From Gammaproteobacteria bacterium (GTDB lineage Bacteria; Pseudomonadota; Gammaproteobacteria; Eutrophobiales; Eutrophobiaceae), in NCBI GenBank assembly GCA_965116495.1, contig OZ220696.1:672001-736000 (forward strand): a stretch of 64,000 bases of DNA, given 5' to 3'. A model generated the notes under the pieces. The model had not been told where the DNA came from. It did not search any database and saw only the letters and a list, made by a program, of their open reading frames with translations. Position numbers and translations under genes: made by a program. Below, piece by piece: positions 43,488 through 61,406 of this stretch (position 1 is its first letter; each line of letters starts with the position of its first letter).

Positions 43488-44813
43488 TTAACCAAGCAAT
43501 GCCTGTACGAAATCAGGCAGTTTGATCACGGATACGGTCAGCGACAGTATGAGCGCTGCCAGCAGAATAATATTTCTCGGCATACTGCTGGTATGCACTC
43601 CCATGATGGATGTCCTGTTTACCATAATCAGCACTGCCAGGTAAACCAGCGGCACTACTATTGCATTGATGCCCATCAGCAGCAGTAGTTTGAACAGGGC
43701 AGGGAAGGTCCATAGAGGCGCCAGCAGTGCGGGCAGGATGATACAGGCCATGACCGTCCTCCTGAAGTGCCTGTTTTCCCTGGTATGGTGCCAGGGATAA
43801 CCGAACATATCGAGAATGAAATAACTGATCACTTCAACAGTCACAATGAAAGTGGTCATGCCCGCAATAATCATCCCGGCTGAAAAAATAACAGGCCCAA
43901 CAAATTCCAGACCCTGTGGAAACGCCCGCAACAATATCCGGCTTGCCTCATGGACAGAGTCGATCTCCGCGTGGTTGGCCAGCGGGTACAGGGCGAACCC
44001 GCCGGCTATGATGATGCACAGGGAACAGGCGCAGTAAAAGAAGCCTAGGTTGATGACAGAGTTGCGGAATTCATGCTTGAGGTCAACTGCGCCCTCCTGC
44101 CGGTTGTCCGCGCTCATGTACGGCATACCCAGCATCGCGGCCGGCGCCAGGACGCTGCCGACAATGCCCATTATGGCGATGCCGCTGCTGCGGACCATGT
44201 CTTGACCGGGAACCGGCACGTCCTCAGGTACGCCAGGCGCCATTCCGGCCAGAATAGCGGACAGTTCCGTGAAGCCGCGCAACGCGACAACCAGAAAACA
44301 GATGAACATCAACACCATTAATGCAGTCATGTAACGCTGCATGCGCTGGTAACCTCCCGAGGTCAGCAGCCAGACTATGCCGGCCGCGAATCCCAGGGAC
44401 ACAACCAGTTCCATAGCCTGGTAGTTGCTAGCGGCAAAATCCGCTGCTGCGTCGGGCGGGTAAATTTCGAACAGGGACAGCGCCGCAGAGGTCATGACCG
44501 ACATCTGTCCCATGCCGATGAGCAGGTGCACGGGGATATTAATCGCCAGCAGCAGCCAGCCCACACCGGGATGGAGATGTTCGCAGATCAGGGAAAACAT
44601 CCCCTTGTCTTTGTTGAGCAAGCCGATACGCGCTGCGCTGTCGACCGTGATCACCAGCAGGGGCACGGTCAGCAGGACCACCCAGAGCAGCTCATAACCG
44701 AACCAGGCGCCGCTGAGTATCAGTGACGAAGCTGAACCTGCCCCGATAGACGCAGCCGCCATCACCGCGGCAGGGCCGGCAATCCTTTTGAAATTATCCG
44801 TGAGTTTCCGCAT
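43488..44813 (-). CDS. NRAMP/YcsG-like secondary transporter (paralog 1)
   Basis: ~11 TM segments; GPAAVMAAASIGAGS...GAWFGYELLWV; lacks the DPGN motif of MntH. Confidence 0.8.
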   Translation of the reverse strand: MRKLTDNFKRIAGPAAVMAAASIGAGSASSLILSGAWFGYELLWVVLLTVPLLVITVDSAARIGLLNKDKGMFSLICEHLHPGVGWLLLAINIPVHLLIGMGQMSVMTSAALSLFEIYPPDAAADFAASNYQAMELVVSLGFAAGIVWLLTSGGYQRMQRYMTALMVLMFICFLVVALRGFTELSAILAGMAPGVPEDVPVPGQDMVRSSGIAIMGIVGSVLAPAAMLGMPYMSADNRQEGAVDLKHEFRNSVINLGFFYCACSLCIIIAGGFALYPLANHAEIDSVHEASRILLRAFPQGLEFVGPVIFSAGMIIAGMTTFIVTVEVISYFILDMFGYPWHHTRENRHFRRTVMACIILPALLAPLWTFPALFKLLLLMGINAIVVPLVYLAVLIMVNRTSIMGVHTSSMPRNIILLAALILSLTVSVIKLPDFVQALLG

Positions 44814-44937: not shown

Positions 44938-45095
44938 GAGTAATGCGAGTAATGGGGTCATGCGAGTAATGGGGTCAGGTCGCACAATGCACACGAGTAA
45001 TGGGGTCAGGTCGCACAATGCACACGCAAACAGAGATAGGCATAAAGTTCAACAATACCTCTGCGTGTGCATTGTGCGACCTGACCCCATTACTC
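44938..45095. repeat. REP-like element: perfect 34-bp inverted repeat with tandemly duplicated left arms
   Basis: GAGTAATGGGGTCAGGTCGCACAATGCACACGCA (44995-45028) and its reverse complement (45062-45095); extra partial left arms at 44964, 44947 and 44938. Confidence 0.9.
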
Positions 45096-45191
45096 CTGGT
45101 GTATAGAGTCTGTTATCCCTTGATCTTTCGACTCCTGCATGCTAAAGATTGCATTCAGGTATGAATGCCAGGTAAACATGAAGGTGATACC

Positions 45192-46195: not shown

Positions 46196-48556
46196 TCAGA
46201 ACGTATATTTCAGCCTGACATACCATTCCAGGGGCCGGGATGGCGCTGCTGCCGTGACGCCGGTGCCGGGGTAGTCCAGGCCGCTGACAATATAGATTTC
46301 ATCGAGCAGGTTGGTGCCGCCCACTGTGGCCAGCCAGTGGCGGTCCACACTCTCCCAGGTCAAGCTCATGTTGAGCATGTCGTAGGATTCCTGGTTCAGA
46401 CGTTCTACGTTTCTGGGCGTCTTGTATTGCTGGCCTTTGTGGGACCAGTCGACACGCAGGTAGGCATGACCCTGTTCATTATCCATGAGGTCGGCGGATG
46501 CGCCCAGGTTGAAATTCCATTCAGGTGCGTTCGCCAATTCATCATCTTCAGTGATACCGGTCTCATTCGGCAGCACATTTAGGTACTTGTGGTCCAGCCA
46601 CCCCAGGCTGCCGTTCAGGCGCAGCCAATCGGTGACGATCAGCAGTGATTCAACCTCAATACCCCATAAACGCGCATCGCCGGCGTTCTCTATGACAGGT
46701 ACGCCGAGATCACCGGCCGAACCCAGTATCTGCAAGTCGTCGTAATTGGTGATGAACCCGGCCAGGTTCATACGCATGCGCCGGTTAAATAACTCGCTTT
46801 TTACACCGATTTCAAACATTTCCACTTCCTCGGGGCCGAACGTCGGAATTAGTTCGTTCGGTTCCGTGATATCCGTGGTCACGCCGGGGATCACCGGTGG
46901 AAATGCCCGCATGGTGAACCCGCCGGCCTTGAAACCATGCGAATAGGTAAAATAACCCATGAAATCATCGTTAAAATCGTAGCTCAGGGTTACCGCCGGC
47001 GTGAAGTTGTCCTCGGTGCCCTGTGCCCAGACCCGGGGCAGGATAGGCGTGCCGGGTGCAAGCAGCCGGAACGGCGGATCGGTCGGCAATGTCAGCCCGG
47101 CATCCAGTATCCCGCCTGAGGTCAGGTACAGTTCATCTACCGTCTGCTCCGGCCGGAAACGGATTTTATCGTGGGTATAGCGCGCGCCGAAGGTCAGGGT
47201 CATCTGGTCCGTGATGTCAAACGTACCCTGGGCAAAAGCCGCAGTGCTGGTGTTGTCGATGGAGCCGCCGCTGGTTATCCTGAGTGGTGGAAAACGCACG
47301 CCGAAATCCTGGCTGCCAGTCTCGTTCATCCAGAAAAAGCCCACCACATAATTCAGACGGTCATTGAAGGTGGTGCCGCTCAGGTGCAGTTCCTGGGTCA
47401 CGGTCTCCATCTCGATATCCTGGTCCACCCAGTCAATATAGAGGGAGGGATTTGCAACCAGGTCCTGGCCGATGTCCACCTGTGAATCACGGAAGGCGGT
47501 AATGGACCTGATACTGAAAGGGCCGATATCCCAGTCCAGGGTCAGGTTAAGGCCAAGGATACTTACGTCCGACTGGTTTGGGCCGCGAGAGTAGTTCTCC
47601 AGGTCATCCAGTTCGGTTTCCCATTGCGAGTTCCAGCAGTCGGGATTGCTGAAACGCGCAGGGTCTCCCAATGCGGGGTTACACGCAGGGAAATCGAACG
47701 TGTTATAAAAGAAGTTGAAAAAAGCGGCTTCATTAATCTCACTGGCCCACAGCACGACCCGCCCGGCAGCCTCTTCGTTGGTTTCGGTGATATCGATAGT
47801 GGCAGTGGCCAGAAAGTTTTCTGCCACGTCTACTTCCGCAACCAGGCGGCCGAACAAAGCCTGCTTGCTTCCTTGCCGATCACCATCAACCAGCCGTTTG
47901 ACATGACCGTCCCGGTTCTGGCTGGCAGCAGTCAGGCGCAAGCGCACACGATCGCTGACGGGGCCGCTCAAGGAGATCTTGCCGTCTATACGCTCATAGT
48001 TGCCGCCGGTCACTTCAGCGTAGCCCTCAAACTCTTCACTGGGTCGCTTTGATATGATCGACACGGCGCCGCCGATGGTATTTCTACCGAACAGGGTACC
48101 CTGCGGCCCGCGCATTACCTCAACCCGCTCCAGGTCGATATTATCCATGAGTGAACCCATGGATTTGCTGACATAAACCCCGTCCAGGTACGTGGCTACA
48201 CCCGGCTCAACCGTCAATACATAATCGGTCTGGCCTATGCCGCGGATGAAGATCTGGCTGGAATTACCGCCGCCGGCTTCCGATGCCACGTTATCGTACT
48301 GGACATTCGGTATGTATTGGGATATCTCATTTACCGATACGATATTGCGCTGTTCCAGTTCCGCCGTATTGAATGCGCTGACTGCCAGCGGGGTGTCCTG
48401 CAAACTCTCTTCGCGTTTCCTTGCGGTGACAACAATTTCCTCCAGAAAAGCGGATGAACCGCTGTCGGCCTGGGCTACCACAGGCGCTGAAGAGCATAAC
48501 AAGCTGACACCGGCTACGGCAAAAGCCACGCGTGTGAACAATTTAATTGACCACAT
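46196..48556 (-). CDS. TonB-dependent receptor
   Basis: Signal peptide; LEEIVVTARKREESLQD, ERVEVMRGPQGTLFGRN, C-terminal YTF. Confidence 0.95.
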   Translation of the reverse strand: MWSIKLFTRVAFAVAGVSLLCSSAPVVAQADSGSSAFLEEIVVTARKREESLQDTPLAVSAFNTAELEQRNIVSVNEISQYIPNVQYDNVASEAGGGNSSQIFIRGIGQTDYVLTVEPGVATYLDGVYVSKSMGSLMDNIDLERVEVMRGPQGTLFGRNTIGGAVSIISKRPSEEFEGYAEVTGGNYERIDGKISLSGPVSDRVRLRLTAASQNRDGHVKRLVDGDRQGSKQALFGRLVAEVDVAENFLATATIDITETNEEAAGRVVLWASEINEAAFFNFFYNTFDFPACNPALGDPARFSNPDCWNSQWETELDDLENYSRGPNQSDVSILGLNLTLDWDIGPFSIRSITAFRDSQVDIGQDLVANPSLYIDWVDQDIEMETVTQELHLSGTTFNDRLNYVVGFFWMNETGSQDFGVRFPPLRITSGGSIDNTSTAAFAQGTFDITDQMTLTFGARYTHDKIRFRPEQTVDELYLTSGGILDAGLTLPTDPPFRLLAPGTPILPRVWAQGTEDNFTPAVTLSYDFNDDFMGYFTYSHGFKAGGFTMRAFPPVIPGVTTDITEPNELIPTFGPEEVEMFEIGVKSELFNRRMRMNLAGFITNYDDLQILGSAGDLGVPVIENAGDARLWGIEVESLLIVTDWLRLNGSLGWLDHKYLNVLPNETGITEDDELANAPEWNFNLGASADLMDNEQGHAYLRVDWSHKGQQYKTPRNVERLNQESYDMLNMSLTWESVDRHWLATVGGTNLLDEIYIVSGLDYPGTGVTAAAPSRPLEWYVRLKYTF

Positions 48557-48607
48557 AATGAAAGATCCCCCCGATCAGATTCAATATGATTATTTTATAC
48601 AGTTAAC

Positions 48608-48669
48608 ATTCTGTCTGCTCAAGCATCCATCTGCTATCCCTTTTGTGCAGGGTTCAGCCTGATTACGCA
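48608..48669 (-). promoter_or_regulatory. Putative AraC/XylS-activated promoter (site C) for the TonB receptor
   Basis: Minus strand TGCGTAATCAGGCTG-N5-TGCACAAAAGGGATA-GCA, with -10-like CAGAAT 21 nt downstream. Confidence 0.65.
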
Positions 48670-48675
48670 TGGCCG

Positions 48676-48790
48676 CTATTCATAGGTAAAACTATCTCTT
48701 TCGTATATTTTCCCGTTCTGGATGACCAGATCAATATTTCGTATATTGCCTATGTCATCAAGTGGGTTGTTTCCCAGTACCAGCACGGAT
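48676..48790 (-). pseudogene. C-terminal remnant of an amidohydrolase
   Basis: Manual translation VLVLGNNPLDDIGNIRNIDLVIQNGKIYERDSFTYE*. Confidence 0.7.
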
Positions 48791-48885
48791 TATTGTTCCT
48801 GCTTCACCATTACCCGCGTAGCATGATAGATGCAGGATATTCAGTAACAGCAAAATAACGGCTGCTGATTTCCAATGCCGGTCGA

Positions 48886-49649
48886 TCATCTTGTCAATAC
48901 CGGTTCCAGCGGCAGTTTTCCGCTGTCGACTACCTGTCCATCCTTCATAACCATCAAAATACTCCTGGTATTCTCAATATCGGATAACGGGTTTCTCTCG
49001 AGTACGACAAGAATTGCCCGGAGCTCAACAGGGACAGTTGCGGTCCCGTATTTTCCTCGAACATGGCGTTGATGCGATTAACGAATCGTCTTGGGGCGAC
49101 CCAACTTCCCCGGGTGTTGAAATCCCTGCCGAACGGACCGCTCAACCCGACAATATTGCCGGCAACAAACAGGCGGCTGCCCGGAATCTCGTTCCTTTCG
49201 ATGCGCTCGCGGACATTCATAAGCGGTTGCAGCGGCCCCCATGTATCGAACACGGTCGTCAGTCCGTATTTCAAGGCAATCTGTGCAGCTTCTGCTATCA
49301 GCAGTTCCAGCCTGTCCTCGTACCTGGCTATGAATTCAATCGAAACATCCCGGAATAAATGTATATTCGCATCCATCATCCCGGGGATAATATATTTTCC
49401 TGATACATCAATGATGTCTGCTCCATCAGGTATTTTTATGTCGTTTCCGGAGCCGACCCGGGCAAATTCATTTCCCTCTATTACGATGACGGAATCATCC
49501 AGGGGTGGCGCGCCGGTTCCATCAATTAACGTCGCCCCGCGCAGGACGACAGTTTCACTGGCATTCACCGTGCCTGACAGCAGCAGGAGAAATACGCAAA
49601 TAATGATGGAACAGGACGCAGCAGGGTTTTTAGTGGTGTGGATTTTCAT
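48886..49649 (-). pseudogene. Exported Amidohydro_1-type amidohydrolase with a large internal deletion and frameshift
   Basis: N-terminus (signal, LRGATLIDGTG, IIPGMMDANIH, LKYGLTTVFD) is joined near 49020 to an out-of-frame C-terminus LVVLERNPLSDIENTRSILMVMKDGQVVD...LTR*. Confidence 0.8.
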
Positions 49650-49695
49650 CGGAGATTCTCCAGAAGGAACTTGGGCATCGGACCGGGTCAGGTTT

Positions 49696-49872
49696 TCAGC
49701 GGAGCAGAGAAATAACAGTATCGGCAAAGGTTTGCATGATTTTTTGCTGGCGTTCCCTGGTCATACCGGGCCAGTACAGGCGTGCAATATAATAAAACTA
49801 GCTGCCGGCCACCCGCGCAAATCGTCGTATTTTCTCTGCGACGGCTTCAGGACTGCCGATAATCCCGTTGTC
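49696..49872 (-). pseudogene. C-terminal remnant of a luciferase-like (LLM) flavin-dependent oxidoreductase
   Basis: Manual translation IIGSPEAVAEKIRRFARVAGS*FYYIARLYWPGMTRERQQKIMQTFADTVISLLR*, with an internal stop. Confidence 0.65.
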
Positions 49873-49919
49873 ACTATGAGGCCATAACCTACCTTCACCA
49901 GATGTCCCGCGCACGCTGA

Positions 49920-52900
49920 TCAGGCGCCAGCATTACATCTGAGTTCATTGGTTTTTTCCGTATCGATTTTACCGGCCGGATCAATGTCAACGCGGTACAC
50001 ATGGCGAGCCCTGTCGATGCTGACAAGTCCTTCCCTGACATCCCTGGCAACGCGCTGCGGGTCTCTCTCAAATGGCTTGCCGTACCCGCCGGCGCCGGTA
50101 CAAATAGATATGATCGACTCGCCGGGTTCGAGCGTGACCCGGGCACAAAGATCCAGTTCCTCCAGTTGGCCATCGCGCCTGCGGATAAACTGTTGTGATC
50201 TTGTGCCTGCATGGCCACCCCGTACACCGAGTGGGGCATTGATGGTGCCGTCACTGGTAAACAGCGCTTCAATACTGGTATCGACCGGTTCATATTCCAC
50301 ATAAGCGCTTGGTGAACCCGTGTGCCGGCCTGCACCTTCCGTATCCTGAATTAAATACTGCGAACTTACCAGGATTGGATATTTCATCTCGTCCACTTCA
50401 ATAGAATCGTGGTGCTGCAGTCCGGCAACCCCTATACCTATTATGGTCAACCAGCCGTCGGCGTAGGGTGCACCGGGTCCGTTACAAACCAGCAGGCACA
50501 GGAAGTTCTGAAAGTGACCTCTGCCTTCCCGGGGATCGACGCCGGATATCACAGCCATCGCCGGCGGCATATGCCGGCCTATTTCGGCCAGGCCAAATCC
50601 CTCGCCCAGTTGGGCGAAACCCAGAGCGACGGCTTTCCCCGCCAGTTCGGACAGGTTGGTCGTGGCAACGGAACAACTGAAAGGGTGGCTTGGAATGCCT
50701 ATGGCACAATTTTCCCTCAGCAGGACTTCGATGCGGCGAAAACTTCCGGAATTCAACGGCACCTGCCGGCGCATGCTGGAGAATACGCCGGCCATTGCCG
50801 CAGATGCAATCGTCGACTCGGACAGGTTCATGCCGAACGGTTGGCAATCGATGTTATCCCTTAAATCTACTTCGACCCTGGCGTCGGCAGGAAATACGGC
50901 CAGGTCGACATTGATGGGGACACCGTTTTCAGCGCCCGGCACCGGGTCATGGTGGATGGTCACCCGGGTTTTGCCATCGGGCAGTTCACTTAATGCGGAA
51001 ACCATTCTGCGTTCCGAATAGTCCATCCAGTCCTGGGCAAATGCTTCAAAGGTACCTTCCGATACGTTGTCCAGAAACTCCAGCAGCCGTTTTTCCCCGA
51101 TTCGACAGGCCCCCAGCATGGCAAGAAAATCACCGTACCACATATCGGGCACCCTGATACGTAGCCGGCATAAGCGGATAAAGTCATCATCCAGTTGATA
51201 ATCACGCTGAATTTTTACACAGGGAAATATCAGGGCGCCTTCCTCATACACGTCTTTGGCAGCAGCAAAAAATGTAGTCGGAATGGAGTTGCCGCAATCT
51301 GCCATATGGGCCTTGGCATAAACCGTTGCGCGATGTCTGCCCTGGGCATCAACCACCGGCATCAATATCGTCCAGTCGGCAGGGTGGGTATTACCGTGGT
51401 AAGGCGAATTATGTACGAAAGCATCACCCCGGTAGAGCACCGGATGGCATTCTTTCATATAGCGGGACTGCAGGTCAGGTCCGCACAGCGTCATGCACGG
51501 CAAGCCTTCGCATACGGTCAGGATTTCGTCATTGGCAGTGACGATCCCGCAGGCAAAGTCCCTGGCCATGTTCATAATCGCGGAACGGGATGTCCGCAGC
51601 AAGGTGTTCCGCATCGCCAGCACAACGGATTCCAGCCGGCTGTTCAGCAGGGCCAGTTCATGACCGCTCATTTTCGAGCCTGCCTTGACGGTGTCCTCGA
51701 CGATGTTTCTCAGGAGTGACTCTCCGGGCTCGACCATGAACGAGGAACCTGTCATTTTTACCGCATTGGCGCCGGGCGGAACAATAATGGTGGTTACCGG
51801 TGATTCTATAAAGGCAGGACCATGAATTTTTATCCCCGCCCGTAACGTTTCCGCGCGTTGTACCCGGGCGGTGGTCCAGCCCATACCCTGGAAGTAAGCC
51901 TTGCGTTCAGTTCCCGCCTCCCGGACGACAGTACTGTACTCTGCGCTCGAGACCACGTCCTTGTGCAGTTTGCAGGACACCTCTGCGCGCCAGGCGATCA
52001 CTTCAATCGGCGCTGCAGTATCTTCAATCGCAAACAGGTCGAGATGTACCTTGTGAAAATCATGGACCAGTCCCTTGACGTCATCTTCGCTATCGAACCT
52101 GTCACGGCGCAAGGGGACTTCTATTTCCCAGACCTGGTCCGGGTAGCGAGCCTCTACGCTGAAGTTTATCGTGACATCATCCGTACCCGAGTTCGCCGCA
52201 AATGACTCACATTCCCGGCGCAGGTCTTGGAGGATACGGTTCGCTGCAGCGCGGTCGAATACCGTACTCAGCATGAAATGTGTCCTGGAGAAGTCACGTT
52301 TGAGTTCGGACAACAACGCGCCGGCAGCGCTGAGTGCCGCGGATACGGAAGGTATCAGTATTTGTCTGACGCCCAATTGGGCCGCGATAGTTGCCGAGTA
52401 CAAACCGCCACCGCCGCCTCCACCGACCAGCAGGGCATTAACCGGATCAATACCCCGTTCCAGGGTGATCTCTTCGATGGCGACTACCATGTTCTGGCAG
52501 GCCAGCTCAAATATCGCCGCTGCTGCGTCTTCCAGTTTCAGGTCGATATGCCCGCCTACCCCGGACATGATCGCCTGTTCAGCAAGAGAGACGTCAATCT
52601 CTATGTTGCCGCCAAGATAAAACGCCGGGTCCAGGTAGCCCAGCACGATGCAAGCATCAGTAAGCGTGGGCTGTTTCCCCCCCTTGTTCCAGCAGGCGGG
52701 TCCCGGGTCGGCGCCGGCGCTCTGTGGGCCGACATGCAATAAACCGCCGTCATCGACCCAGGCGATAGAACCTCCGCCGGCGCCGATACTGCGCACATCA
52801 ACCGAAGCAAAGCCGGTCATGAACCCCTGTTTCTGGTCGCCTACCATGGCTTCACGGGTCCAGGGAATCTGGCCGTTTTGTACCAGGCCCACATCGAAAG

Positions 52901-53807
52901 TCGTGCCGCCGGCGTCAGTGACGATAGAAAGATCGGAGTTGCAGTCATGTTTCGCATAATGGCGTCCGGCTATCGGCGCCGCCGCCGGCCCGCTGCCTAT
53001 CGTATGGATAGGCCTGTCCCACACATCGTCTGCATCAAGCATCCCGCCTGACGCGGTTAATATCAACAGGCGTCCCGTGAAGCCCTCTCCACGCAAGCTT
53101 GATTCCAGGTGGCGCAGATAAGCGCCCATCAACGGTTTCAGCGAGGCATCTATCGCCGTTGAAGAGGCGCGGCGGTATTCGCGGATAGTCGGGTTGAGCT
53201 GGTGAGAAAGTGTGTAAGGTATACCGGGCAGGTGTTCGTCAAGCAGCCTGCCCAGTTCCAGTTCATGCACCGGATTTACGGCCGACCAGAGCAGGCATAC
53301 CGCAACGGCTTCAATTTCTTCCTGTTTTATTTTCCTTATTGTCTCGATAGCAGCCTTCTGGTCGATTTCTTTCACCACACGGCCATCAGCGTAGATACGC
53401 TCCGCTATTTCGTAGGACAGGGACCTGGGGATATAAGGCTCAGGATATTCCTGGGAATAATCCATCGGTTCATGACGCCCGCCACCTTCCCTGACCAACA
53501 GCATATCCTTATGGCCTTTAGTGGTCATAAATGCAGTACGGGCAGTTTTGTGTTCCACGATGGCATTGGTCGCCCTGGTAGTGCCGTACACCAGTATGTC
53601 TCCCAGTTCCAGCAAACGTCCCGCACTCATGCCTAATTCCTGCGCGGCAAAACTGATTACGTCAAGCAGTCCCCTGGTCGGGTCATCCGGGGTTGTAGGG
53701 CGTTTGAACAGACGTAATTTATCGTCCAGTCCCTCAATGATGAGATCGGTAAATGTTCCGCCGGTATCGACGCCGAAGCGCAGACGTGTATTATTATCCG
53801 GGCTCAT
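49920..53807 (-). CDS. Fused hydantoinase/oxoprolinase A+B (ATP-dependent lactamase family)
   Basis: A part: VDTGGTFTD, GTTRATNA, SGPAA, DAGGTTFD, SIGAGGGS, GPQSAGADPGP. B part: RTSRS, NSPYHGNTHPAD, KAHMAD, YEEG, DTEGAG, GAGGYG. Confidence 0.93.
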   Translation of the reverse strand: MSPDNNTRLRFGVDTGGTFTDLIIEGLDDKLRLFKRPTTPDDPTRGLLDVISFAAQELGMSAGRLLELGDILVYGTTRATNAIVEHKTARTAFMTTKGHKDMLLVREGGGRHEPMDYSQEYPEPYIPRSLSYEIAERIYADGRVVKEIDQKAAIETIRKIKQEEIEAVAVCLLWSAVNPVHELELGRLLDEHLPGIPYTLSHQLNPTIREYRRASSTAIDASLKPLMGAYLRHLESSLRGEGFTGRLLILTASGGMLDADDVWDRPIHTIGSGPAAAPIAGRHYAKHDCNSDLSIVTDAGGTTFDVGLVQNGQIPWTREAMVGDQKQGFMTGFASVDVRSIGAGGGSIAWVDDGGLLHVGPQSAGADPGPACWNKGGKQPTLTDACIVLGYLDPAFYLGGNIEIDVSLAEQAIMSGVGGHIDLKLEDAAAAIFELACQNMVVAIEEITLERGIDPVNALLVGGGGGGGLYSATIAAQLGVRQILIPSVSAALSAAGALLSELKRDFSRTHFMLSTVFDRAAANRILQDLRRECESFAANSGTDDVTINFSVEARYPDQVWEIEVPLRRDRFDSEDDVKGLVHDFHKVHLDLFAIEDTAAPIEVIAWRAEVSCKLHKDVVSSAEYSTVVREAGTERKAYFQGMGWTTARVQRAETLRAGIKIHGPAFIESPVTTIIVPPGANAVKMTGSSFMVEPGESLLRNIVEDTVKAGSKMSGHELALLNSRLESVVLAMRNTLLRTSRSAIMNMARDFACGIVTANDEILTVCEGLPCMTLCGPDLQSRYMKECHPVLYRGDAFVHNSPYHGNTHPADWTILMPVVDAQGRHRATVYAKAHMADCGNSIPTTFFAAAKDVYEEGALIFPCVKIQRDYQLDDDFIRLCRLRIRVPDMWYGDFLAMLGACRIGEKRLLEFLDNVSEGTFEAFAQDWMDYSERRMVSALSELPDGKTRVTIHHDPVPGAENGVPINVDLAVFPADARVEVDLRDNIDCQPFGMNLSESTIASAAMAGVFSSMRRQVPLNSGSFRRIEVLLRENCAIGIPSHPFSCSVATTNLSELAGKAVALGFAQLGEGFGLAEIGRHMPPAMAVISGVDPREGRGHFQNFLCLLVCNGPGAPYADGWLTIIGIGVAGLQHHDSIEVDEMKYPILVSSQYLIQDTEGAGRHTGSPSAYVEYEPVDTSIEALFTSDGTINAPLGVRGGHAGTRSQQFIRRRDGQLEELDLCARVTLEPGESIISICTGAGGYGKPFERDPQRVARDVREGLVSIDRARHVYRVDIDPAGKIDTEKTNELRCNAGA

Positions 53808-53808
53808 A

Positions 53809-54198
53809 TCAACTGGTTGCCTGTTTGGTTTTTTCCGTATCGAAATAATCCCTTACCCAATCAATCTTCCCATCCTTGATATCAGTGATAAATACCCCTT
53901 TACTTGAAAATGACCTGCCGTTTTTCAGACTGAAATCACCTCGCCATTCGGCAATGACAACGTTCATCCCCGTATCTTCAAAAATGTTATATGGTTCGAA
54001 GTGAATACTGGTAAACTTTGCCAGCACGTCATCACGCATGTATTTCAAAAAATCAGCCCGTCCTTCGATATCGGTGCCGAATGCAGTGCCGGCAGCCGTG
54101 TGTTTTACCTCATCCGTAACAATCGGGGACAATCCATCTGCATTGCGTTCATTGAAGCAGCGTACCATGGACATAATCAGTTCTTTATTTGTACTCAT
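53809..54198 (-). CDS. SnoaL-like / NTF2-family protein
   Basis: 129 aa; GVFITDIKDGKIDWVRDYFDT C-terminus; stop lies 1 nt before the hydantoinase start. Confidence 0.88.
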   Translation of the reverse strand: MSTNKELIMSMVRCFNERNADGLSPIVTDEVKHTAAGTAFGTDIEGRADFLKYMRDDVLAKFTSIHFEPYNIFEDTGMNVVIAEWRGDFSLKNGRSFSSKGVFITDIKDGKIDWVRDYFDTEKTKQATS

Positions 54199-54245
54199 GT
54201 CAGATCTCCATAGGAAGAATCACTGTCGGGGCAATGCAAGTAAAA

Positions 54246-54308
54246 ATTATCTTTCTGTGCGGCAGGTTATTGCTATCCCTTTACAGCAAGACTTATCCTT
54301 TCTGCGCA
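54246..54308 (-). promoter_or_regulatory. Putative AraC/XylS-activated promoter (site A) for snoaL-hydantoinase
   Basis: Minus strand TGCGCAGAAAGGATA-N5-TGCTGTAAAGGGATA-GCAAT, with -10-like GATAAT 22 nt downstream. Confidence 0.75.
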
Positions 54309-54355
54309 TTCGATGTGTCCAGGCACCGGGAAGGCACTCCTCAACCCCTGCTTTG

Positions 54356-54601
54356 CTATCCTGCCGCAATCTTTCTGATAAAAACAAACTCGCTGTCAGG
54401 ATTAAGTTTTTCAAGAAAAGGATTATTTATGACAACCCCGTCGATTGACACCATATAGTTGCTCAGTTCTGCTTCGGAAAGACCGGAATAAAGCCTTGAT
54501 AATTCCGTTATCAGTTCACGGCAACTGCCGGCTGCAATATCTGTTTCCCTCAAACCGTCAGTGAATAGCGTCTGTTCCGGATTAAATATTACCCTGGCCA
54601 T
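54356..54601 (-). CDS. MoaD/ThiS-family ubiquitin-like protein
   Basis: 81 aa; VSIDG...FVFIRKIAAG C-terminus; follows the Mo subunit gene. Confidence 0.8.
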   Translation of the reverse strand: MARVIFNPEQTLFTDGLRETDIAAGSCRELITELSRLYSGLSEAELSNYMVSIDGVVINNPFLEKLNPDSEFVFIRKIAAG

Positions 54602-54628
54602 TTCTGAAAAAGCCGGATGGATAGATGG

Positions 54629-56875
54629 TCAGTGATTATTTTCCAGGATTGCATCCATCACCCTTGATGGATTTAGCGGCATATCGCTGATTGAAGTCCC
54701 CAGGGCGCGATTGACCGCAATCGCTACCGCCGCCATCGGTGCGCATATAGGTGTTTCTCCAACACCCCGCACACCGTAAGGATGCTCCGGGTTCGGCACT
54801 TCTACGATCACCGTATCTATCATCGGCAAATCGGTAGCAACAGGAATGCGGTAATCAAGGAAGCCGGGATTGATCATTTCCCCGGCCTCATCGTACCTGT
54901 ACTCTTCATTCAGGGCCCAGCCTATCCCCTGTGCCACGCCGCCCTGCATCTGGCCTTCGACATAATCGGGATGGATTGCGATACCCGCATCCTGAATTGC
55001 CGTAAACCGTTCTATCCCTACTTTGCCGGTCTCATTGTCTACGCTGACATCGACAAGGTTGACTGCACAACTGGGCGCAGCGCCACTGGTATTCGCAGAC
55101 ACGCTGGCACTGATTGTGCCCCCGGTTTTATAGGCTGTTCGCGCCAGTTCCGCTATCCCCATGCCGGGCAGATTTGAACTGCGGGCATGAGCAGCGCCGG
55201 CTTGCCAATATACATTTTCAACGTCAATGTCCCACAGTGCTGCGGCCCGCTTGCATAACTCCTGTTTAACCTGTTCCGCTGCCTGTACGACTACCTTGCC
55301 CGTGGCCAGGGTTACGCGACTGCCGCCCGTGACGTCGGAAAACCCGACAGTCTCCGTGTCGGCTACAATGGGTGTAATTGATTCTACCGGCACATCAAGG
55401 GTTTCTGCCGCCATTAAGGCCATGGAGGCGCGGGAACCGCCAATGTCCGGTGTGCCGACCAGCAGGTTGACTTTCCCGGTTTCCGTCAAGTGTATCGTGG
55501 CACTGGAATGACAACTGCCGCCGATGTAAAACGCACAGGCCACACCACGGCCGTAACCGGTCGGCAACTTTGACGTGTAGTGCGGATGCGTTCTGGCGCG
55601 CTGCAAGCTCTCTACCAAACCGAGTGGGCCCAGTTTTAATCCGAACAGATTAGTATTTCCCTCCCTGTTCGCATTTAATAAGCGGATTTCTATCGGGTCC
55701 AGGTCCAGCCCTCGCGCCAAATCATCCACAACGTTTTCACAGGCCAGCAATGCCTGCGGTAATCCCGGGGCGCGATATGGCGTTACATTGAGTTTATTGA
55801 CCAGTATTTCAAGACCTTCCACCCGCATGTTGGGAGTGTCATAGCAGGAAAAAATGTTCATTTTCGCCTCCTGCATGGAACCGCCCCGGAAAGCACCGGC
55901 TTCGTATTCCATATGGGCTTCCAGCGCAGTTATCTTCCCGGACTTTGCCGCACCCGCTTTTAACCTGATACGGGTTGCCGGTGCATGGCCGGTAGCCCGG
56001 AAGACCTCTTCTCTTGTCATTGTCATCTTGACCGGCCTGCCGGATTTTCCCGATAAAACTGCAGCAACCGGTTCCAGGTAAGGAACCAGCTTGCCGCCAA
56101 AACCACCGCCGATTTCGCTTGGTGTTACTTTTATATCAGCCGCGTCAATACCGAGAATCAAAGCGGTATAGGCGCGTACCGCAAAGGCTCCCTGGGTGGA
56201 ACACCATATTTCAACCTTGCCGTTTTCATTGACGCTGACTACGCAGCCAAGTGGTTCTATATAACCCTGGTGAACAGGGGGTGTCGTAAATGTTCTTTCT
56301 ACAACCAGATCAGCTTCTCTGAAACCATGTTCTATATCACCACGCTCCAGAGTAGTGCGCGCGGCGATATTGGATTGTCTGGAAACCGTCTCAGCTGAAC
56401 CTTCCGGGATAGTATTTTCATCTATCACAGGCGCACCGGGCGCCAGCGCCGCATCAATTGTTAAAACATGGGGTAATACCTCATAGTCGGCATCGATCAA
56501 ATCAAGCGCCTGTTCAGCGATTTCAACAGAAGTAGCGGCAACAGCGGCAACGGCGTGTCCGTGGTAAAGCGCCTTATCCTGCGCCATGACAGTTTGCGAC
56601 TGTGTAACGGCATCTATCGGCAGGACAATACCTTCAACCGTCACATCCGTTAAGGTAGGAAAATCATCCCGGCAGGTAACAGCAATTACCCCGTCCAGAG
56701 CAAGAGCCCTGCTCAAATCGATGGATTTAATACGGGCATGAGCATGCGGGCTGCGCAGTACTTTCCCATAAAGCATGCCCGGCAAGGAAAAGTCTGAGCC
56801 ATAATCCGCTCGGCCGGTGACTTTATCCAGTCCATCAGGACGAACAGGCCGTGTGCCTATATATTTGTATGTCAT
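54629..56875 (-). CDS. Xanthine dehydrogenase/CoxL-family molybdopterin-binding subunit
   Basis: Start ATG 56875; DKVTGRADY, LRSPHAHARI, HQGYIEP, IGGGFGGK, YRAPG, GGSR, EGQMQGG, RGVGE. Confidence 0.93.
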   Translation of the reverse strand: MTYKYIGTRPVRPDGLDKVTGRADYGSDFSLPGMLYGKVLRSPHAHARIKSIDLSRALALDGVIAVTCRDDFPTLTDVTVEGIVLPIDAVTQSQTVMAQDKALYHGHAVAAVAATSVEIAEQALDLIDADYEVLPHVLTIDAALAPGAPVIDENTIPEGSAETVSRQSNIAARTTLERGDIEHGFREADLVVERTFTTPPVHQGYIEPLGCVVSVNENGKVEIWCSTQGAFAVRAYTALILGIDAADIKVTPSEIGGGFGGKLVPYLEPVAAVLSGKSGRPVKMTMTREEVFRATGHAPATRIRLKAGAAKSGKITALEAHMEYEAGAFRGGSMQEAKMNIFSCYDTPNMRVEGLEILVNKLNVTPYRAPGLPQALLACENVVDDLARGLDLDPIEIRLLNANREGNTNLFGLKLGPLGLVESLQRARTHPHYTSKLPTGYGRGVACAFYIGGSCHSSATIHLTETGKVNLLVGTPDIGGSRASMALMAAETLDVPVESITPIVADTETVGFSDVTGGSRVTLATGKVVVQAAEQVKQELCKRAAALWDIDVENVYWQAGAAHARSSNLPGMGIAELARTAYKTGGTISASVSANTSGAAPSCAVNLVDVSVDNETGKVGIERFTAIQDAGIAIHPDYVEGQMQGGVAQGIGWALNEEYRYDEAGEMINPGFLDYRIPVATDLPMIDTVIVEVPNPEHPYGVRGVGETPICAPMAAVAIAVNRALGTSISDMPLNPSRVMDAILENNH

Positions 56876-56915
56876 AGATGTATTAAAACCCGGTGTTCCT
56901 GCTTTGTATCTCCGG

Positions 56916-57389
56916 CTAGCATTCCCGTAATTCGCGGGCCGCATCCAGCACCGCGCGCACGATTTTGTCATAGCCCGTACAACGACACAGGTTTCCTGCC
57001 AGCCAGTACCTTACCTGTTCTTCATCAGGATCCCTGTTGCTGTCCAGTAATGCCTTGGCGGCAACTACTATGCCCGGAGTGCAGATACCGCATTGCAAGG
57101 CCGCGTGTTCCAGTAATTTTTTTTGTACAGGGTGTAGTTTGTTCCCTTTTGCAACTCCCTCCACAGTGTCAACAGACTGTCCTTCCATCTCGACTGCGAG
57201 CAGCAGGCAGGCACACACTAAACAGCCGTTTAATATGATTGAGCAGGCACCGCAATCACCCGTATTGCACCCTTCTTTAGTTCCCGTCAGACGTAAACGC
57301 TCGCGCAATACATGCAGCGCCGTTTCATGCGGTTCACACAGAAACTGCACCGGTTCGTTGTTAATACTGGTCTTTACATGCAAAGCCAT
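56916..57389 (-). CDS. CoxS/CutS-family (2Fe-2S)x2 subunit
   Basis: GTKEGCNTGDCGAC, ACL, QCGICTPG, GNLCRCTGY. Confidence 0.95.
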   Translation of the reverse strand: MALHVKTSINNEPVQFLCEPHETALHVLRERLRLTGTKEGCNTGDCGACSIILNGCLVCACLLLAVEMEGQSVDTVEGVAKGNKLHPVQKKLLEHAALQCGICTPGIVVAAKALLDSNRDPDEEQVRYWLAGNLCRCTGYDKIVRAVLDAARELREC

Positions 57390-57636
57390 GTCATGTGCCG
57401 GCTATGCCGCCGGATATTCAGACAACAATTCATCGTCATTATTCACCATTTTTATTCTCCTGTCTGGCCAAGTCAAATTTATATATGAAACTACGGGAGC
57501 ACTTTATTTTCAACCTGCATGGCCACCCATACATAATCGTGCCTGGGATAAGAACCGGCAAGTACTGTACTGATTTTAATGGTCGTTGCAATTTCATCCT
57601 GGTTACTTACGTGGAATAGTCTGGTACAGAACTGAA

Positions 57637-57699
57637 ATTATCTTTTTTCCTGTCAGGGCATTGCTAGCCCGTAGCGGCAGTACTTATCCTTTAAGCGCA
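57637..57699 (-). promoter_or_regulatory. Putative AraC/XylS-activated promoter (site B) for the coxS-coxL-moaD operon
   Basis: Minus strand TGCGCTTAAAGGATA-N5-TGCCGCTACGGGCTA-GCAAT, with GATAAT 22 nt downstream; aligns ungapped with site A. Confidence 0.75.
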
Positions 57700-57783
57700 T
57701 TTGATTATCCTCCATATTCATAGAGTTAATTTCACATATGGTTTATAGTTGTATGCAGTTGATGACAGACGGTAGAAGAACGC

Positions 57784-58800
57784 ATGGCTGATCACAACCT
57801 CACTAATTCACTGCCGATAAGTGTTGATACATTCAGTACGACCGAGGCTCAGGTAGCTAACGAGTATATTAACGACCACGTTGCCTTGCATCGCCTTGAC
57901 GTAGTCGATGTGTGCTCCGGTGTCAAATTTGATTGCCGGCGATGGCAGATAGGGGATTTTCAGGTATGTGACTTTTCCTACGGTGAATGTGAAGTTGAAG
58001 TCACCGTTAACCAGTGCGATGAACAGGGGTTTTTTATCGTCATACCGATTTCCGGCCATGTTGATATCTCATCAAAAGATGTACAGCTTGCCCTGCAGCC
58101 GGGGTCGGCGATGGCCTTCACCACACCGGAAGCCGCAAATACATCCTTCCATGACTCCCGGAGTTTTCGCAATATCAATATTTGTGCATCCTATGAAGCA
58201 TTACGCAGCTTTCTTGCGAGAGAGTTCGACCTGCCAATAACCCGTAGTATCAGTTTTGCCAAGCACCCGATATTTGTCAGCAATGATTTCCGTTTTTTAC
58301 TTGACTATATTGAGTGGTTTTCAAACCGGATTGACAGGGATGTCGTGTCAATGCTGAATAACAGTTCTCACCTGGCCGGCCACCTGCACGATATGGTGTT
58401 GGGTTTACTTATCTCCACATTTGACAATAACTACCAGGAACTTTATTGCTCGCAAAACAAGAAAAGCATCTCTCCCTCATATGTGCGCTTGGCTGAAGAA
58501 TATATGCGTGACAATGTCTGTGAGACTGTGACCGTCAACGATATTGCCAGGGAAGTGGGTGTTGCAATGCGGACTTTGCATAAGGGGTTTCAGCGTTATC
58601 GCAATTACAGCGTGTCGGAATTTTTAAGAAACGAACGGTTGTCCCTGGCCCATAAGGAACTGGCCACTGCGAAGGAAAGAAAGCAGTCGGTTACCGATAT
58701 TGCTTATTCCTGTGGTTTTGCTCATCTCAGTAAGTTCGCGGTTGCCTACCGGAAAAGATACGGAGAAAAGCCTTCTGAAACTCTCAGGAAAGGAAATTGA
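57784..58800 (+). CDS. AraC-family transcriptional activator (N-terminal ligand domain + HTH)
   Basis: YVRLAEEYM...DIAREVGVAMRTLHKGFQR...SVTDIAYSCGFAHLSKFAVAYRKRYGEKPSETLR. Confidence 0.95.
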   Translation: MADHNLTNSLPISVDTFSTTEAQVANEYINDHVALHRLDVVDVCSGVKFDCRRWQIGDFQVCDFSYGECEVEVTVNQCDEQGFFIVIPISGHVDISSKDVQLALQPGSAMAFTTPEAANTSFHDSRSFRNINICASYEALRSFLAREFDLPITRSISFAKHPIFVSNDFRFLLDYIEWFSNRIDRDVVSMLNNSSHLAGHLHDMVLGLLISTFDNNYQELYCSQNKKSISPSYVRLAEEYMRDNVCETVTVNDIAREVGVAMRTLHKGFQRYRNYSVSEFLRNERLSLAHKELATAKERKQSVTDIAYSCGFAHLSKFAVAYRKRYGEKPSETLRKGN

Positions 58801-58817: not shown

Positions 58818-60143
58818 TCAATTAACGAACGTCTGAATAACCTCAGGCAGGTTTGATACAGACAGGCTGACGGATAACAGCAATCCTGTTGCCAGGACGA
58901 TATTCCGTTTCACGCTGGCCACATGCTCACCCATCACGGCTTTGTTGTTGAGCAGGAAGATCAGCACAAAAAACGCGAGCGGTATAACTATTGTATTTAC
59001 CCCCATCAGTAACAGGTTCTTCGCTAAAGCAGGGAATTCCCAGAATGGCGCAGATACAGCCGGGGCAAGAATAAAGAATACCAGTGCACGTTTGAAGGCC
59101 TTGTTGTCGTCACTGTAGTGCCAGTTACGCCTCATTATATCCAGGCATGCGTAACTGGTGACTTCCACAATCACTATATACGTGGTGATGGCCGCTACCA
59201 ACATGCCAAGGGAAAATATGATCGGTCCCAGAAAACCGATGGCGTCAGGAAACGCCCGTACAAGTATTTTGCTGGCCTCGTTAACGGAATCGATTTCTGC
59301 ATGATTCGCCAGAGGATAAAGTGCAAAGCCCCCGGCGATGATGATAAACAGGGAATACCCGCCATACATAATTCCGAGATTAACGACGGATTTTCTGAAC
59401 TCTTTCTTCAGGTCGGCAGCACCGGCCTGGCTGTCCGCGCTGAGGTACGAGATTCCAAATAAAGCTCCGGGGGCCAGCACGCTACCGATGATAGCGAGCA
59501 TTGAAAGACTGCTGTCACGGCTGATTTCCTGCCCCGGCACCGGCAGGTCGGCAGGGATGCCGGGCACAAATCCTGCCAGGATAGCGCCAATCTCCTGAAA
59601 GCCGCGCAAGGCCACGATCAGGAAACAGATAAACATCACCACCATACAGGCAGTCATCACCCGTTGCATCCGTTCATAGCCTTCCGCGGCAAGCAGCCAG
59701 ATAAGCATGGCTGCAAAACCCAGTGCCAGGACCAGTTCGGCAATACGGTACATGCCGGCGGCGCCCTCAGGCCCACCTGCTTCCGGAGGATAATACCCGA
59801 ACAAGGACAGTGACGCGGATGTCATGATTGACACATGGGCCATTCCGACGAGGAAATGTACCGGGACATGAATCATGATGATCAGCCATGCAACACCCGG
59901 GTGGATGAAGTCACGGATCAATGAAAACATCCCCCGATCCTTGTTCACCAGGCCCAGACGTGCAGCCGAATCCACAGATACCACGAATAATGGCAGGATT
60001 AATACGGCAAGCCAGAGCAGATCATAACGAAACCAGGCGCCGGCAAGTATGAGTGATGAGGTGGAACCGGCGCCCATGGACCCGGCGGTGATGACTGCGG
60101 CCGGCCCGACCATAGCGATGAAGTAAGCGAGTAATTTGCGCAT
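58818..60143 (-). CDS. NRAMP/YcsG-like secondary transporter (paralog 2)
   Basis: 441 aa, collinear with 43488-44813 (shared IIIAGGFALYPLANHAEIDSV). Confidence 0.8.
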   Translation of the reverse strand: MRKLLAYFIAMVGPAAVITAGSMGAGSTSSLILAGAWFRYDLLWLAVLILPLFVVSVDSAARLGLVNKDRGMFSLIRDFIHPGVAWLIIMIHVPVHFLVGMAHVSIMTSASLSLFGYYPPEAGGPEGAAGMYRIAELVLALGFAAMLIWLLAAEGYERMQRVMTACMVVMFICFLIVALRGFQEIGAILAGFVPGIPADLPVPGQEISRDSSLSMLAIIGSVLAPGALFGISYLSADSQAGAADLKKEFRKSVVNLGIMYGGYSLFIIIAGGFALYPLANHAEIDSVNEASKILVRAFPDAIGFLGPIIFSLGMLVAAITTYIVIVEVTSYACLDIMRRNWHYSDDNKAFKRALVFFILAPAVSAPFWEFPALAKNLLLMGVNTIVIPLAFFVLIFLLNNKAVMGEHVASVKRNIVLATGLLLSVSLSVSNLPEVIQTFVN

Positions 60144-60155
60144 ATAATGCTGCGC

Positions 60156-61406
60156 CTAACCTGGTTCCGGGAATCGCGATAGAGAGAATCGAGGATCGGG
60201 TGTACTTCGTTCTAGTACATATTTTGCAACATCCTGGCCGCGAGCCGGCCCGCTGTGGAAGGCGGTCCCTGAACCGCCGCCGTGGATCCAGGCATTTTCC
60301 GCCCCGGGGTGGCGGTCGATGATGTAATCCCCATCCGGTGTATTCGTATACTGACAGACACGCCCTCCGAGGTAAGCAGCTCCTTTCATTCCCGGGAAGC
60401 GGTAGCCAACCTGCTCACGCGCAGCTTCCTTTCCGGCTTCCGATACCTGCCGATCACCGGAGGTCGGTTCGAAACCCGGCCCTAGCCTGTGGTCAGCGAC
60501 CGTGAAGCCCCACTTCCGGTGGGCGGGCACACCCCACCAAATCTCCTGTCCCCAATCGACCCAGTGCGGCAAAAGATCTTTGTGAAACCGCTCGTCGCCC
60601 TCGGGAGCATCCAGGTAATAGACCTCTTGGCGCGTGACGGTAAGGTGTTTCCCGACGGTATCCGGGAACAGCTTGCCCAGCCAGGGGCCGCAGGCAAAAA
60701 CGTAGCGATCCGCCTCGATCCGGGATCCGTCGTCCAGCGTGACTCCCTGCATTTCCCCATTCCTGATCAGGGTAGAGACCACACCGGCCTGCCGGTAGTC
60801 CCCGCCCTCGGACAGGAAGCCGTCGACGACTGCATAACAGGCGCGACGGGCGAACAGGATACCAGCCTCTTTCTCGTAGAATGTTTTCCGGATGCCATCC
60901 ATATTAATTTGAGGAAAGCGTGCATGGGTCTCGTCCGGGGTCAGCTTCTCCCCACCGTCTACGTCTTCATCCATCCAGCGCGTGTAATCTGCTGTTCTAT
61001 CGGACGCTGAATCTCCGATTACCAGGTTTTCGCGAACCATCCACAGGGCGCCGACAGGATCATAGAGTGGAAGCTGCCATTGTTCCTGGTGTTCCAACCA
61101 GAGTTGCATGGAGCGGCGGGACCATTCCTGGTAAACGGCTGGCGTCCCGTAGCCACGGGTCAGGTTGCGGGTCTGGCCGCCGGAGCTTGAACGGGGATTG
61201 CCGGGTCCCCAGGGGTCGACCAGCGTTACGCGCGCGCCCTGGCGAAGCAAATAGAGTGCCGTCCATCCTCCGAAGGCGCCTGCACCGGCAACCAGGACAT
61301 GCGTTTTAGCGCTATCCCGGGAAAAGGCTTGCCGGCCACTGCCGAGACCGATAATGCCCGCGAGTCCTGTCTTCAGGAAGCGGCGTCTGGAACCGGAAAG
61401 GTTCAT
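60156..61406 (-). CDS. Tat-exported FAD amine oxidase/dehydrogenase, sarcosine oxidase/SolA family
   Basis: SRRRFLK twin-arginine; GAGAFG, SSSGGQTR, ACGPW, CQYTNTPDGDYIID. Confidence 0.88.
   Translation of the reverse strand: MNLSGSRRRFLKTGLAGIIGLGSGRQAFSRDSAKTHVLVAGAGAFGGWTALYLLRQGARVTLVDPWGPGNPRSSSGGQTRNLTRGYGTPAVYQEWSRRSMQLWLEHQEQWQLPLYDPVGALWMVRENLVIGDSASDRTADYTRWMDEDVDGGEKLTPDETHARFPQINMDGIRKTFYEKEAGILFARRACYAVVDGFLSEGGDYRQAGVVSTLIRNGEMQGVTLDDGSRIEADRYVFACGPWLGKLFPDTVGKHLTVTRQEVYYLDAPEGDERFHKDLLPHWVDWGQEIWWGVPAHRKWGFTVADHRLGPGFEPTSGDRQVSEAGKEAAREQVGYRFPGMKGAAYLGGRVCQYTNTPDGDYIIDRHPGAENAWIHGGGSGTAFHSGPARGQDVAKYVLERSTPDPRFSLSRFPEPG

Follow-up and report, generated by a model that had tools for sequence, protein, structure and literature searches.

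Three tandem operators probably place a hydroxylase–hydantoinase gene cluster of an uncultured gammaproteobacterium under one AraC-family regulator

Three leftward gene units, encoding a molybdenum hydroxylase, a fused hydantoinase and a TonB-dependent receptor, lie close to a gene for an AraC-family regulator in a 64,000-nucleotide stretch of DNA from a member of the Eutrophobiaceae (Gammaproteobacteria; GenBank assembly GCA_965116495.1, contig OZ220696.1, positions 672,001 to 736,000). This whole stretch is here called the window, and positions are counted from its first letter. The locus raises the question of whether the three units form a single regulon. A sequence-only reading had proposed that they do, since each is preceded by a similar pair of direct repeats. 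From comparisons of the window with its genome and its relatives, we put a probability of roughly 0.85 on the view that a dimer of the AraC protein binds three XylS/BenR/CphR-type sites and activates three leftward promoters on sensing an inducer.

The three sites were found where the sequence-only reading had placed them. All are on the minus strand and consist of TGC-N7-GG[AC]T[AG], five nucleotides, TGC-N7-GG[AC]TA and then GCA. Site A (54274–54308; distal half-site 54294–54308, proximal half-site 54274–54288) is upstream of the snoaL-hydantoinase unit. Site B (57665–57699; distal half-site 57685–57699, proximal half-site 57665–57679) is upstream of coxS-coxL and divergent from araC, and site C (48635–48669; distal half-site 48655–48669, proximal half-site 48635–48649) is upstream of the receptor gene. 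The box GG[AC]TA ends five of the six half-sites, the distal half of site C ending in GGCTG. The half-sites are 15 bp long and the gap between them is five nucleotides, giving a period of 20 bp; the gap has the same length in all 22 sites collected from the window and its relatives. The predicted −10-like hexamers were also present: GATAAT at 54246–54251 (promoter A) and at 57637–57642 (promoter B), 22 nucleotides after the proximal box, and CAGAAT at 48608–48613 (promoter C), 21 nucleotides after it, all on the minus strand, with distances taken from the last base of the GG[AC]TA box rather than from GCA. Start sites are predicted at about 54239, 57630 and 48601 for promoters A, B and C, respectively.

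The araC gene occupies 57784–58800 on the plus strand. Its start codon is 84 nucleotides from the distal edge of site B, a distance of 83–85 nucleotides in eight relatives of the same genus. Additional half-sites beside site B (57706–57720 and 57646–57660) are not kept in relatives, and autoregulation through them is not claimed. A TATAGT/TATAAT hexamer at about 57745–57750 on the plus strand, some 35 nucleotides before the araC start, recurs in most genus relatives and could serve as the −10 element of araC itself. On the other side, site B is 248 nucleotides upstream of coxS, and remnants of two deleted genes lie between them.

The strict pattern occurred three times in the whole genome of 4,341,124 bases, at sites A, B and C. 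With a spacer of four or six nucleotides the same pattern had no exact match genome-wide, and a looser form, allowing any base in the middle of the GG box and A or G at the box end, added one match. The chance expectation for the strict pattern is 0.02–0.03 matches, which overstates the rarity because the pattern was derived from sites A, B and C themselves. In a partly independent test, the genome was scored at spacer 5 with a half-site matrix built from 11 distinct sites of relatives, the window and its closest relative, G015, being excluded. The three sites ranked first to third genome-wide (33.2, 32.8 and 30.3 bits), and the next match scored 18.8 bits.

Orthologs of the AraC protein, 80–92% identical to it, are present in 8 of the 22 genomes of the genus. 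Over 41 genomes the strict pattern was found in the window's own genome, in seven of the eight with an ortholog and in none of the 32 without one. When the first box was widened to T[AG]C, a change made after the relatives had been inspected, a site was found in 10 of 11 family genomes with an AraC ortholog and in none of the other 115. The sole miss was G139, in which araC is cut at the contig start, and a reversed control pattern gave two matches in all 126 family genomes.

The same architecture was looked for at 69 loci from other lineages, whose AraC proteins are 24–44% identical to that of the window in the best segment. A spacer-5 site with at most two mismatches lay on the divergent strand within 350 nucleotides upstream of araC at nine loci, and at spacers of 3, 4, 6, 7 or 8 no such divergent site was found at any of the 69. 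When the whole loci were searched at no more than one mismatch, spacer 5 gave nine matches, other spacers 0–2 and ten shuffles 0–2. Period-20 sites beside distant AraC genes were recorded at L073:2752, L075:7782, L074:8155, L102:3235, L056:9835, L069:9730, L054:11001 and L100:9845 and 13034. The genes that follow them encode HpaB-type monooxygenase and dioxygenase-like proteins, cupin-FMO proteins and, in two actinomycete records, NiFe-hydrogenases. Locus L097 has overlapping period-20 sites on both strands.

Resemblance between the three promoters might also reflect shared ancestry, with duplicated promoter DNA inherited along with the cluster and no activator common to the three today. This view draws on the similarity of A and B, which the sequence-only reading had put at roughly three-quarters without gaps. 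The figure was close, at 49/70 positions (70%) or 46/63 (73%), compared with 34/70 for A and C and 32/70 for B and C. Outside the boxes, GCA and the −10 hexamer, A and B agree at 22 of 38 positions (P about 1e-4 against 0.28), and here B of the window is nearer to A (19/38) than to B (13/38) of the outgroup genome G041 (= G141; AraC 66% identical). The outgroup record L032 is titled Planctomycetota, and a genome search places the genome in the window's own family. The cluster is moreover decaying in the window genome, as described below. Site C, however, resembles A and B in the boxes only (14/38 and 11/38 elsewhere). Between the window and the outgroup, 16 of 16 box bases are kept at site B and 13 of 16 at site C, whereas identity elsewhere is near chance (13/38 and 9/38). 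In the comparison with G015, none of 48 box positions differs, as against 12 of 141 other positions. The boxes are therefore conserved selectively, further than linkage would produce, and with the recurrence of the architecture beside AraC relatives in other phyla and the constraint on the core genes (see below) this makes descent without a common activator very improbable.

The A–B alignment had been offered as evidence of a common regulator, and in this role it does not hold. A and B probably descend from a single copied promoter, so that their identity is not independent evidence; the independent evidence for a shared regulator is site C together with the sites of the outgroup. The outgroup has three sites, before coxM-coxS-coxL, snoaL-hydantoinase and a TonB-dependent receptor gene whose product is 45% identical to that of the window and which lies about 21 kb from araC.

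The spacing of the −10 element was equally constant. NANAAT occurs 21 or 22 nucleotides after the proximal box in all 22 sites, and for any other pair of offsets between 12 and 40 (21 and 22 excluded) at most two sites have it. A consensus promoter scan gave fewer hits than shuffled sequence (7 versus 14 in the C region) and none at A or B; such a scan is uninformative for activator-dependent promoters.

These positions point to a class II arrangement. On the pattern of XylS and CphR, the half-sites would extend from about −69 to −55 and from −49 to −35. A dimer of inducer-bound AraC would occupy both half-sites and recruit σ70 polymerase, and since the proximal half would overlap a poor −35 element (TAGCAA or TAGCAG), the promoters would need the activator. 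The XylS/BenR/CphR operator type, a class II geometry and the proposed regulon are supported, while two parts of the original argument, the A–B alignment and a clean boundary of the module, do not stand as stated.

The closest described operator is that of CphR from Rhodococcus sp. YH-5B, in which 15-bp repeats were mapped by mutation at −35/−49 and −55/−69 (PMC6205950). The window sites share with it the five-nucleotide gap and 20-bp period, a relaxed first box (TGCG and CGCG in CphR) and a regulator divergent from its target. In CphR the proximal box overlaps the −35 element, as the proximal halves in the window are predicted to do. The comparison concerns operators and layout, and the systems differ in that CphR is described for one promoter, of a chlorophenol monooxygenase, whereas here there are three promoters, of a molybdenum hydroxylase, a predicted lactamase and a TonB-dependent receptor. 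With XylS at Pm the window sites share the half-site TGC-N7-GG[AC]TA, and the Pm hexamer of pWW0, TAGGCT, is 21 nucleotides after the proximal half. Pm differs in its six-nucleotide gap (21-bp period) and its strict TGCA boxes (PMC4514859). The proximal XylS site is reported to overlap the −35 box by two bases (PMC4225500), and the BenR half-site is described as the same as the XylS-type half-site (PMC6449761). A putative Pben site of P. fluorescens has TGCG and a 5-bp gap, like the window sites (PMC1360089). By their bases, the window sites are tandem operators of the XylS/BenR/CphR type and not XylS/Pm operators in the strict sense. According to these accounts the five-nucleotide form is already published, for CphR and as a proposal for Pben. 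The control logic itself is textbook knowledge.

The three units encode a set of proteins that suggests catabolism of a ring compound. Pfam bore out the original labels of the AraC, CoxS- and CoxL-type, SnoaL, fused hydantoinase A+B and TonB receptor genes. All of the target genes are on the minus strand. The CoxS-type 2Fe-2S subunit of the molybdenum hydroxylase (56916–57389; Fer2_2; ratio of nonsynonymous to synonymous substitution rates, dN/dS, 0.08–0.10) is followed by the CoxL-type molybdopterin subunit (54629–56875, likely start 56875). The second unit comprises a SnoaL-like protein of 129 amino acids (53809–54198) and a fused hydantoinase/oxoprolinase A+B of 1295 amino acids (49920–53807; dN/dS 0.07), a predicted ATP-dependent lactamase. 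The third encodes a TonB-dependent receptor of 786 amino acids (46196–48556; dN/dS 0.10–0.15), with a predicted role in substrate uptake. Across araC, coxS, coxL, snoaL, hydantoinase and receptor genes dN/dS is 0.07–0.17 (araC, 0.07–0.10), and by this measure and the box comparisons the core, including the three operators, is under purifying selection.

The label 'moaD', given to an 81-amino-acid open reading frame after coxL (54356–54601, minus strand), stands for size and position only. No ThiS/MoaD hit was obtained for it at E ≤ 1, and BLASTP gave no significant match to the MoaD/ThiS protein at the same position in Ruegeria, where the gene order is coxM-coxS-coxL-MoaD/ThiS and the last protein also has 81 amino acids. 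It is 54% identical to an outgroup reading frame, and its dN/dS is 0.91 on very few changes.

The gene families suggest that a nitrogen heterocycle or cyclic amine enters through the receptor, that the carbon adjoining its ring nitrogen is oxidised by the molybdenum hydroxylase, which yields a lactam, and that the lactam ring is opened by the fused ATP-dependent hydantoinase. The substrate is thus likely to be an N-heterocycle or a lactam. The hydantoinase is nearest to CapA caprolactamase among NCBIfam models, below the cut-off (as is CapB), and to an N-methylhydantoinase in the PDB. Hydantoinases are described as ATP-dependent cyclic amidohydrolases, in a family that includes the gamma-lactamase of an indoleacetate pathway (PMC5214803). 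It is possible, though less probable, that the regulon is real and its substrate is of another kind, such as an aromatic aldehyde, ketone or lactone. The hydantoinase family also includes ketone carboxylases, according to the same account (PMC5214803), the best PDB match of CoxL is 4-hydroxybenzoyl-CoA reductase, and the genes behind the sites at distant AraC loci encode HpaB-type and FMO-type monooxygenases and even hydrogenases. An N-heterocycle or lactam is favoured by the fusion of just two parts, A and B, in a cluster whose reading frames include no recognised gamma subunit gene, by best matches that are lactamases, and by the operon of relatives, which adds two amidohydrolases and an amine-oxidase-like flavoprotein.

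Two described systems resemble parts of this set. OplR of Pseudomonas putida is reported as an AraC-family activator of an ATP-dependent lactamase that responds to lactams (bioRxiv 10.1101/700484). The likeness of OplR/OplBA to the window is one of layout only, an AraC activator beside an ATP-dependent hydantoinase/oxoprolinase; the window differs in having A and B as a single protein and in joining a molybdenum hydroxylase and a TonB-dependent receptor to the same predicted regulon. The anaerobic indoleacetate pathway of Aromatoleum aromaticum is comparable by its description, in which an ATP-dependent gamma-lactamase opens an N-heterocycle (PMC5214803). It differs from the window cluster, in which no CoA ligase gene was recognised. 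The Aromatoleum pathway reportedly oxidises its N-heterocycle in a hydroxylase step of the xanthine dehydrogenase family, and its regulator is said to be of a type other than AraC. A literature search for a described match, with most subscription papers outside its coverage, yielded nothing relevant beyond the Apc and OplR papers. The genome itself is rich in catabolic families: it has at least 11 further CoxL-like loci and at least eight more that are hydantoinase-like, and genes of the luciferase-like and amidohydrolase families are numerous.

Several points weigh against the proposal that one AraC protein controls the three units of such a pathway. A strict TGCA first box is found in just one of the six half-sites, the others having TGCG (three), TGCT (one) and TGCC (one). 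The sites used to train the matrix were gathered with the window-derived pattern and are related by descent. Co-occurrence of sites and AraC partly shows joint inheritance, because the sites and araC form one linked cluster, and kin are not independent. Among the distant loci, 60 of 69 have no divergent spacer-5 site near araC, and record titles assign the nine that do to about four lineages. Site C has a weak −10 hexamer and a second σ70-like pair, TTGAGC-17-TATAAA (48594–48622), 13 nucleotides downstream. PDB and plasmid searches turned up no characterised protein closely related to the hydantoinase or to CoxL (plasmid hits at most 50% identical), and for this reason the substrate class follows from family logic; the neighbourhoods of three hydantoinase matches and one CoxL match named no substrate. 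The three-subunit CoxM/CoxS/CoxL set is incomplete at this locus, since coxM was not seen there in any genus member examined, and its absence leaves the hydroxylase without an obvious electron exit. The outgroup and Ruegeria have coxM, and the window's genome carries 11 genes elsewhere for FAD_binding_5 proteins (the flavin adenine dinucleotide, or FAD, subunit). The nearest of these, at C1:1415015–1415845, is 44% identical to coxM of the outgroup. A speculative and rather improbable extension is that the AraC protein is the sensor of an undescribed pathway for uptake and ring opening of a host-derived alkaloid or other N-heterocycle, that the FAD subunit was shed and is borrowed in trans or the electrons go elsewhere, and that operator-bearing promoter copies allow operons to be reshuffled within the regulon.

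A further point concerns the protein. The AraC protein (338 amino acids) contains AraC_binding_2 (PF14525, 31.5 bits, cut-off 27) and a C-terminal double helix-turn-helix (HTH_18, PF12833, 69.9 bits). Its best NCBIfam model is AndR, at 124 bits and thus below the cut-off of 350, and it is 28% identical to XylS across 148 C-terminal residues. Judged by these matches it is not an ortholog of XylS, BenR or AndR, and because the effector domain did not align to that of XylS, benzoate is not implied as the inducer. Base-contact residues of XylS are given as Arg242, Asn246, Glu249 and Lys250, and Gly295, Arg296, 299, Asn300 and Arg302 (bioRxiv 10.1101/400788). At these nine positions the window protein has two identical residues (Arg242 and Arg302), three conservative and four different ones.

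Real operators might accordingly be read by another regulator, for example the one other close XylS-type paralog in the genome (C1:1626742–1627770), whose match to XylS (E = 4e-26) is stronger than that of the adjacent AraC (E = 2e-13). The paralog, however, has no equivalent of Arg242, and searches of five motif-bearing relatives failed to find it in any of them, matching nothing but the adjacent AraC. Its 10.5-kb neighbourhood has no standout tandem site (one three-mismatch match per strand, at spacer 6), and the sites follow the adjacent-AraC ortholog through the family genomes, as given above. Control by another regulator is thus highly unlikely. The adjacent AraC is likely the reader and the strongest candidate for activating all three units, because the paralog lacks the Arg242 equivalent and was not found in those relatives.

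With the weak −10 hexamer and the second pair at site C, transcription of the receptor gene may start elsewhere than predicted. In one version AraC binds all three sites and promoter C starts from TTGAGC-17-TATAAA (48622–48594), with the operator then farther upstream by about one helical turn; alternatively, C is in part independent of the activator. The genus copies of C do have TTGA[AG]C or CTGAAC, 17 nucleotides and a TATAA[AC]-like hexamer, and the consensus scan lists CAGACA-17-AATAAT at 48617–48589, though in a region with fewer hits than shuffles. We consider this version unlikely. CA[GAC]AAT is kept at 21 nucleotides in all eight genus copies of site C, with only the third base variable, the outgroup site C has CATAAT at 22 nucleotides, and the downstream TATAA[AC] lacks the final T.

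Five accessory genes within the three units are broken, so that the 'functional' module of the sequence-only reading needs a caveat. Comparison with G015, in which the gene order is that of the window and the accessory genes are in place, revealed five internal deletions, and the deleted genes were identified from Pfam matches of the genes of relatives. Two gene remnants lie behind site B (57392–57586, minus strand), and a transcript from promoter B would first cross them. One is of a luciferase-like monooxygenase gene, which has lost its start codon and about 894 bp at 57505/57506; the other is of a second SnoaL gene, which lacks about 399 bp at 57388/57389. The minus-strand region 48680–49905 holds what is left of a second luciferase-like monooxygenase gene, with a deletion of about 832 bp at 49874/49875, and of two amidohydrolase genes, with deletions of about 696 bp at 49012 and about 1150 bp at 48786. 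Contigs of runs X6 and X7 (about 98% identical; one labelled sponge metagenome) span both deletions behind B without gaps, and their strains appear to keep sequence at the remaining junctions; a further run, X1, may be the source of the window itself. The deletions are therefore not assembly errors and arose stepwise.

An intact-looking pair of luciferase-like monooxygenase and SnoaL genes, without an operator, is present at G000:C1:2170729–2172190; the products are 69% and 75% identical to those of the genes deleted behind B, and the pair may cover the loss. Relatives show accessory losses of their own. G018 (L018) is without the monooxygenase-SnoaL pair and one amidohydrolase, and the first SnoaL is not intact in G007 (L021) and G014 (L022). 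In G015 (L016:4271–4410) an extra A in a run near the start of the first luciferase-like gene behind B is either a frameshift or an assembly error.

Gene order in relatives bears on how the two similar promoters arose. Site A is at the equivalent position in G015 and in the outgroup. Seven genus relatives have no site A; in these the araC-proximal site lies directly before snoaL-hydantoinase (snoaL being reduced in two), the hydroxylase genes come next where assembled, and site C precedes the receptor in six. Site C was directly upstream of the receptor gene in all seven genus relatives where it was found. A recent promoter duplication in the window genome alone is ruled out, as G015 and the outgroup have sites at A and B, which leaves an older event in which an A-like copy took the place of the B core. 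B is probably a copy of the A promoter from a rearrangement that also removed coxM. Tandem duplication with reciprocal losses would explain the likeness of A and B, the loss of coxM and both gene orders of the genus. This order of events stays hypothetical because only the coxL tree (rows covering less than 75% of the gene excluded, as in all trees) resolves the clade of two-site genomes it needs (support 100/99), the araC, hydantoinase and Nramp trees leaving the node open.

The receptor region (46196–48700) is itself mosaic. Its upstream part, made up of promoter C and roughly 150 bases of coding sequence, is closer to G015 (0.78–0.89 versus 0.59–0.65), and the rest of the gene is closer to G018 and G007 (0.85–0.96 versus 0.71–0.87). 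This pattern suggests that the allele was exchanged while the operator in front of it was kept.

The regulon had also been thought to separate a module cleanly from a surrounding patchwork. This does not hold, as flanking genes accompany the module in relatives. The FAD oxidase gene (60156–61406) immediately precedes site C, in the same orientation, in all six two-site relatives for which the stretch was fetched. The Nramp-like gene that adjoins araC here (58818–60143) follows the hydantoinase gene in unit A of the outgroup, and the other Nramp-like gene, an amino-acid carrier gene and a metallo-hydrolase gene are recurrent neighbours of the cluster. The two Nramp-like paralogs (43488–44813 and 58818–60143) are about 55–58% identical to each other's orthologs; adjacent in most relatives, they are 14 kb apart in the window and flank the module. 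Short direct and inverted repeats lie between the Nramp-like and metallo-hydrolase genes (44940–45110), with an 11-base core that occurs 114 times in the genome. We take them to resemble elements of the repetitive extragenic palindromic (REP) type.

The comparisons thus give good support to a new, predicted regulon in uncultured Gammaproteobacteria, which is local, has three promoters and serves a catabolic cluster that is uncharacterised. The kind of gene control is ordinary for bacteria and would not surprise a specialist. The 20-bp-period operator is widespread in this clade of AraC proteins and may aid regulon prediction, and the AraC–promoter pair could yield a biosensor, as OplR did. Coming from an uncultured lineage, the same regulator–promoter pair could reveal the inducer, and hence the substrate of the hydroxylase–lactamase cluster.

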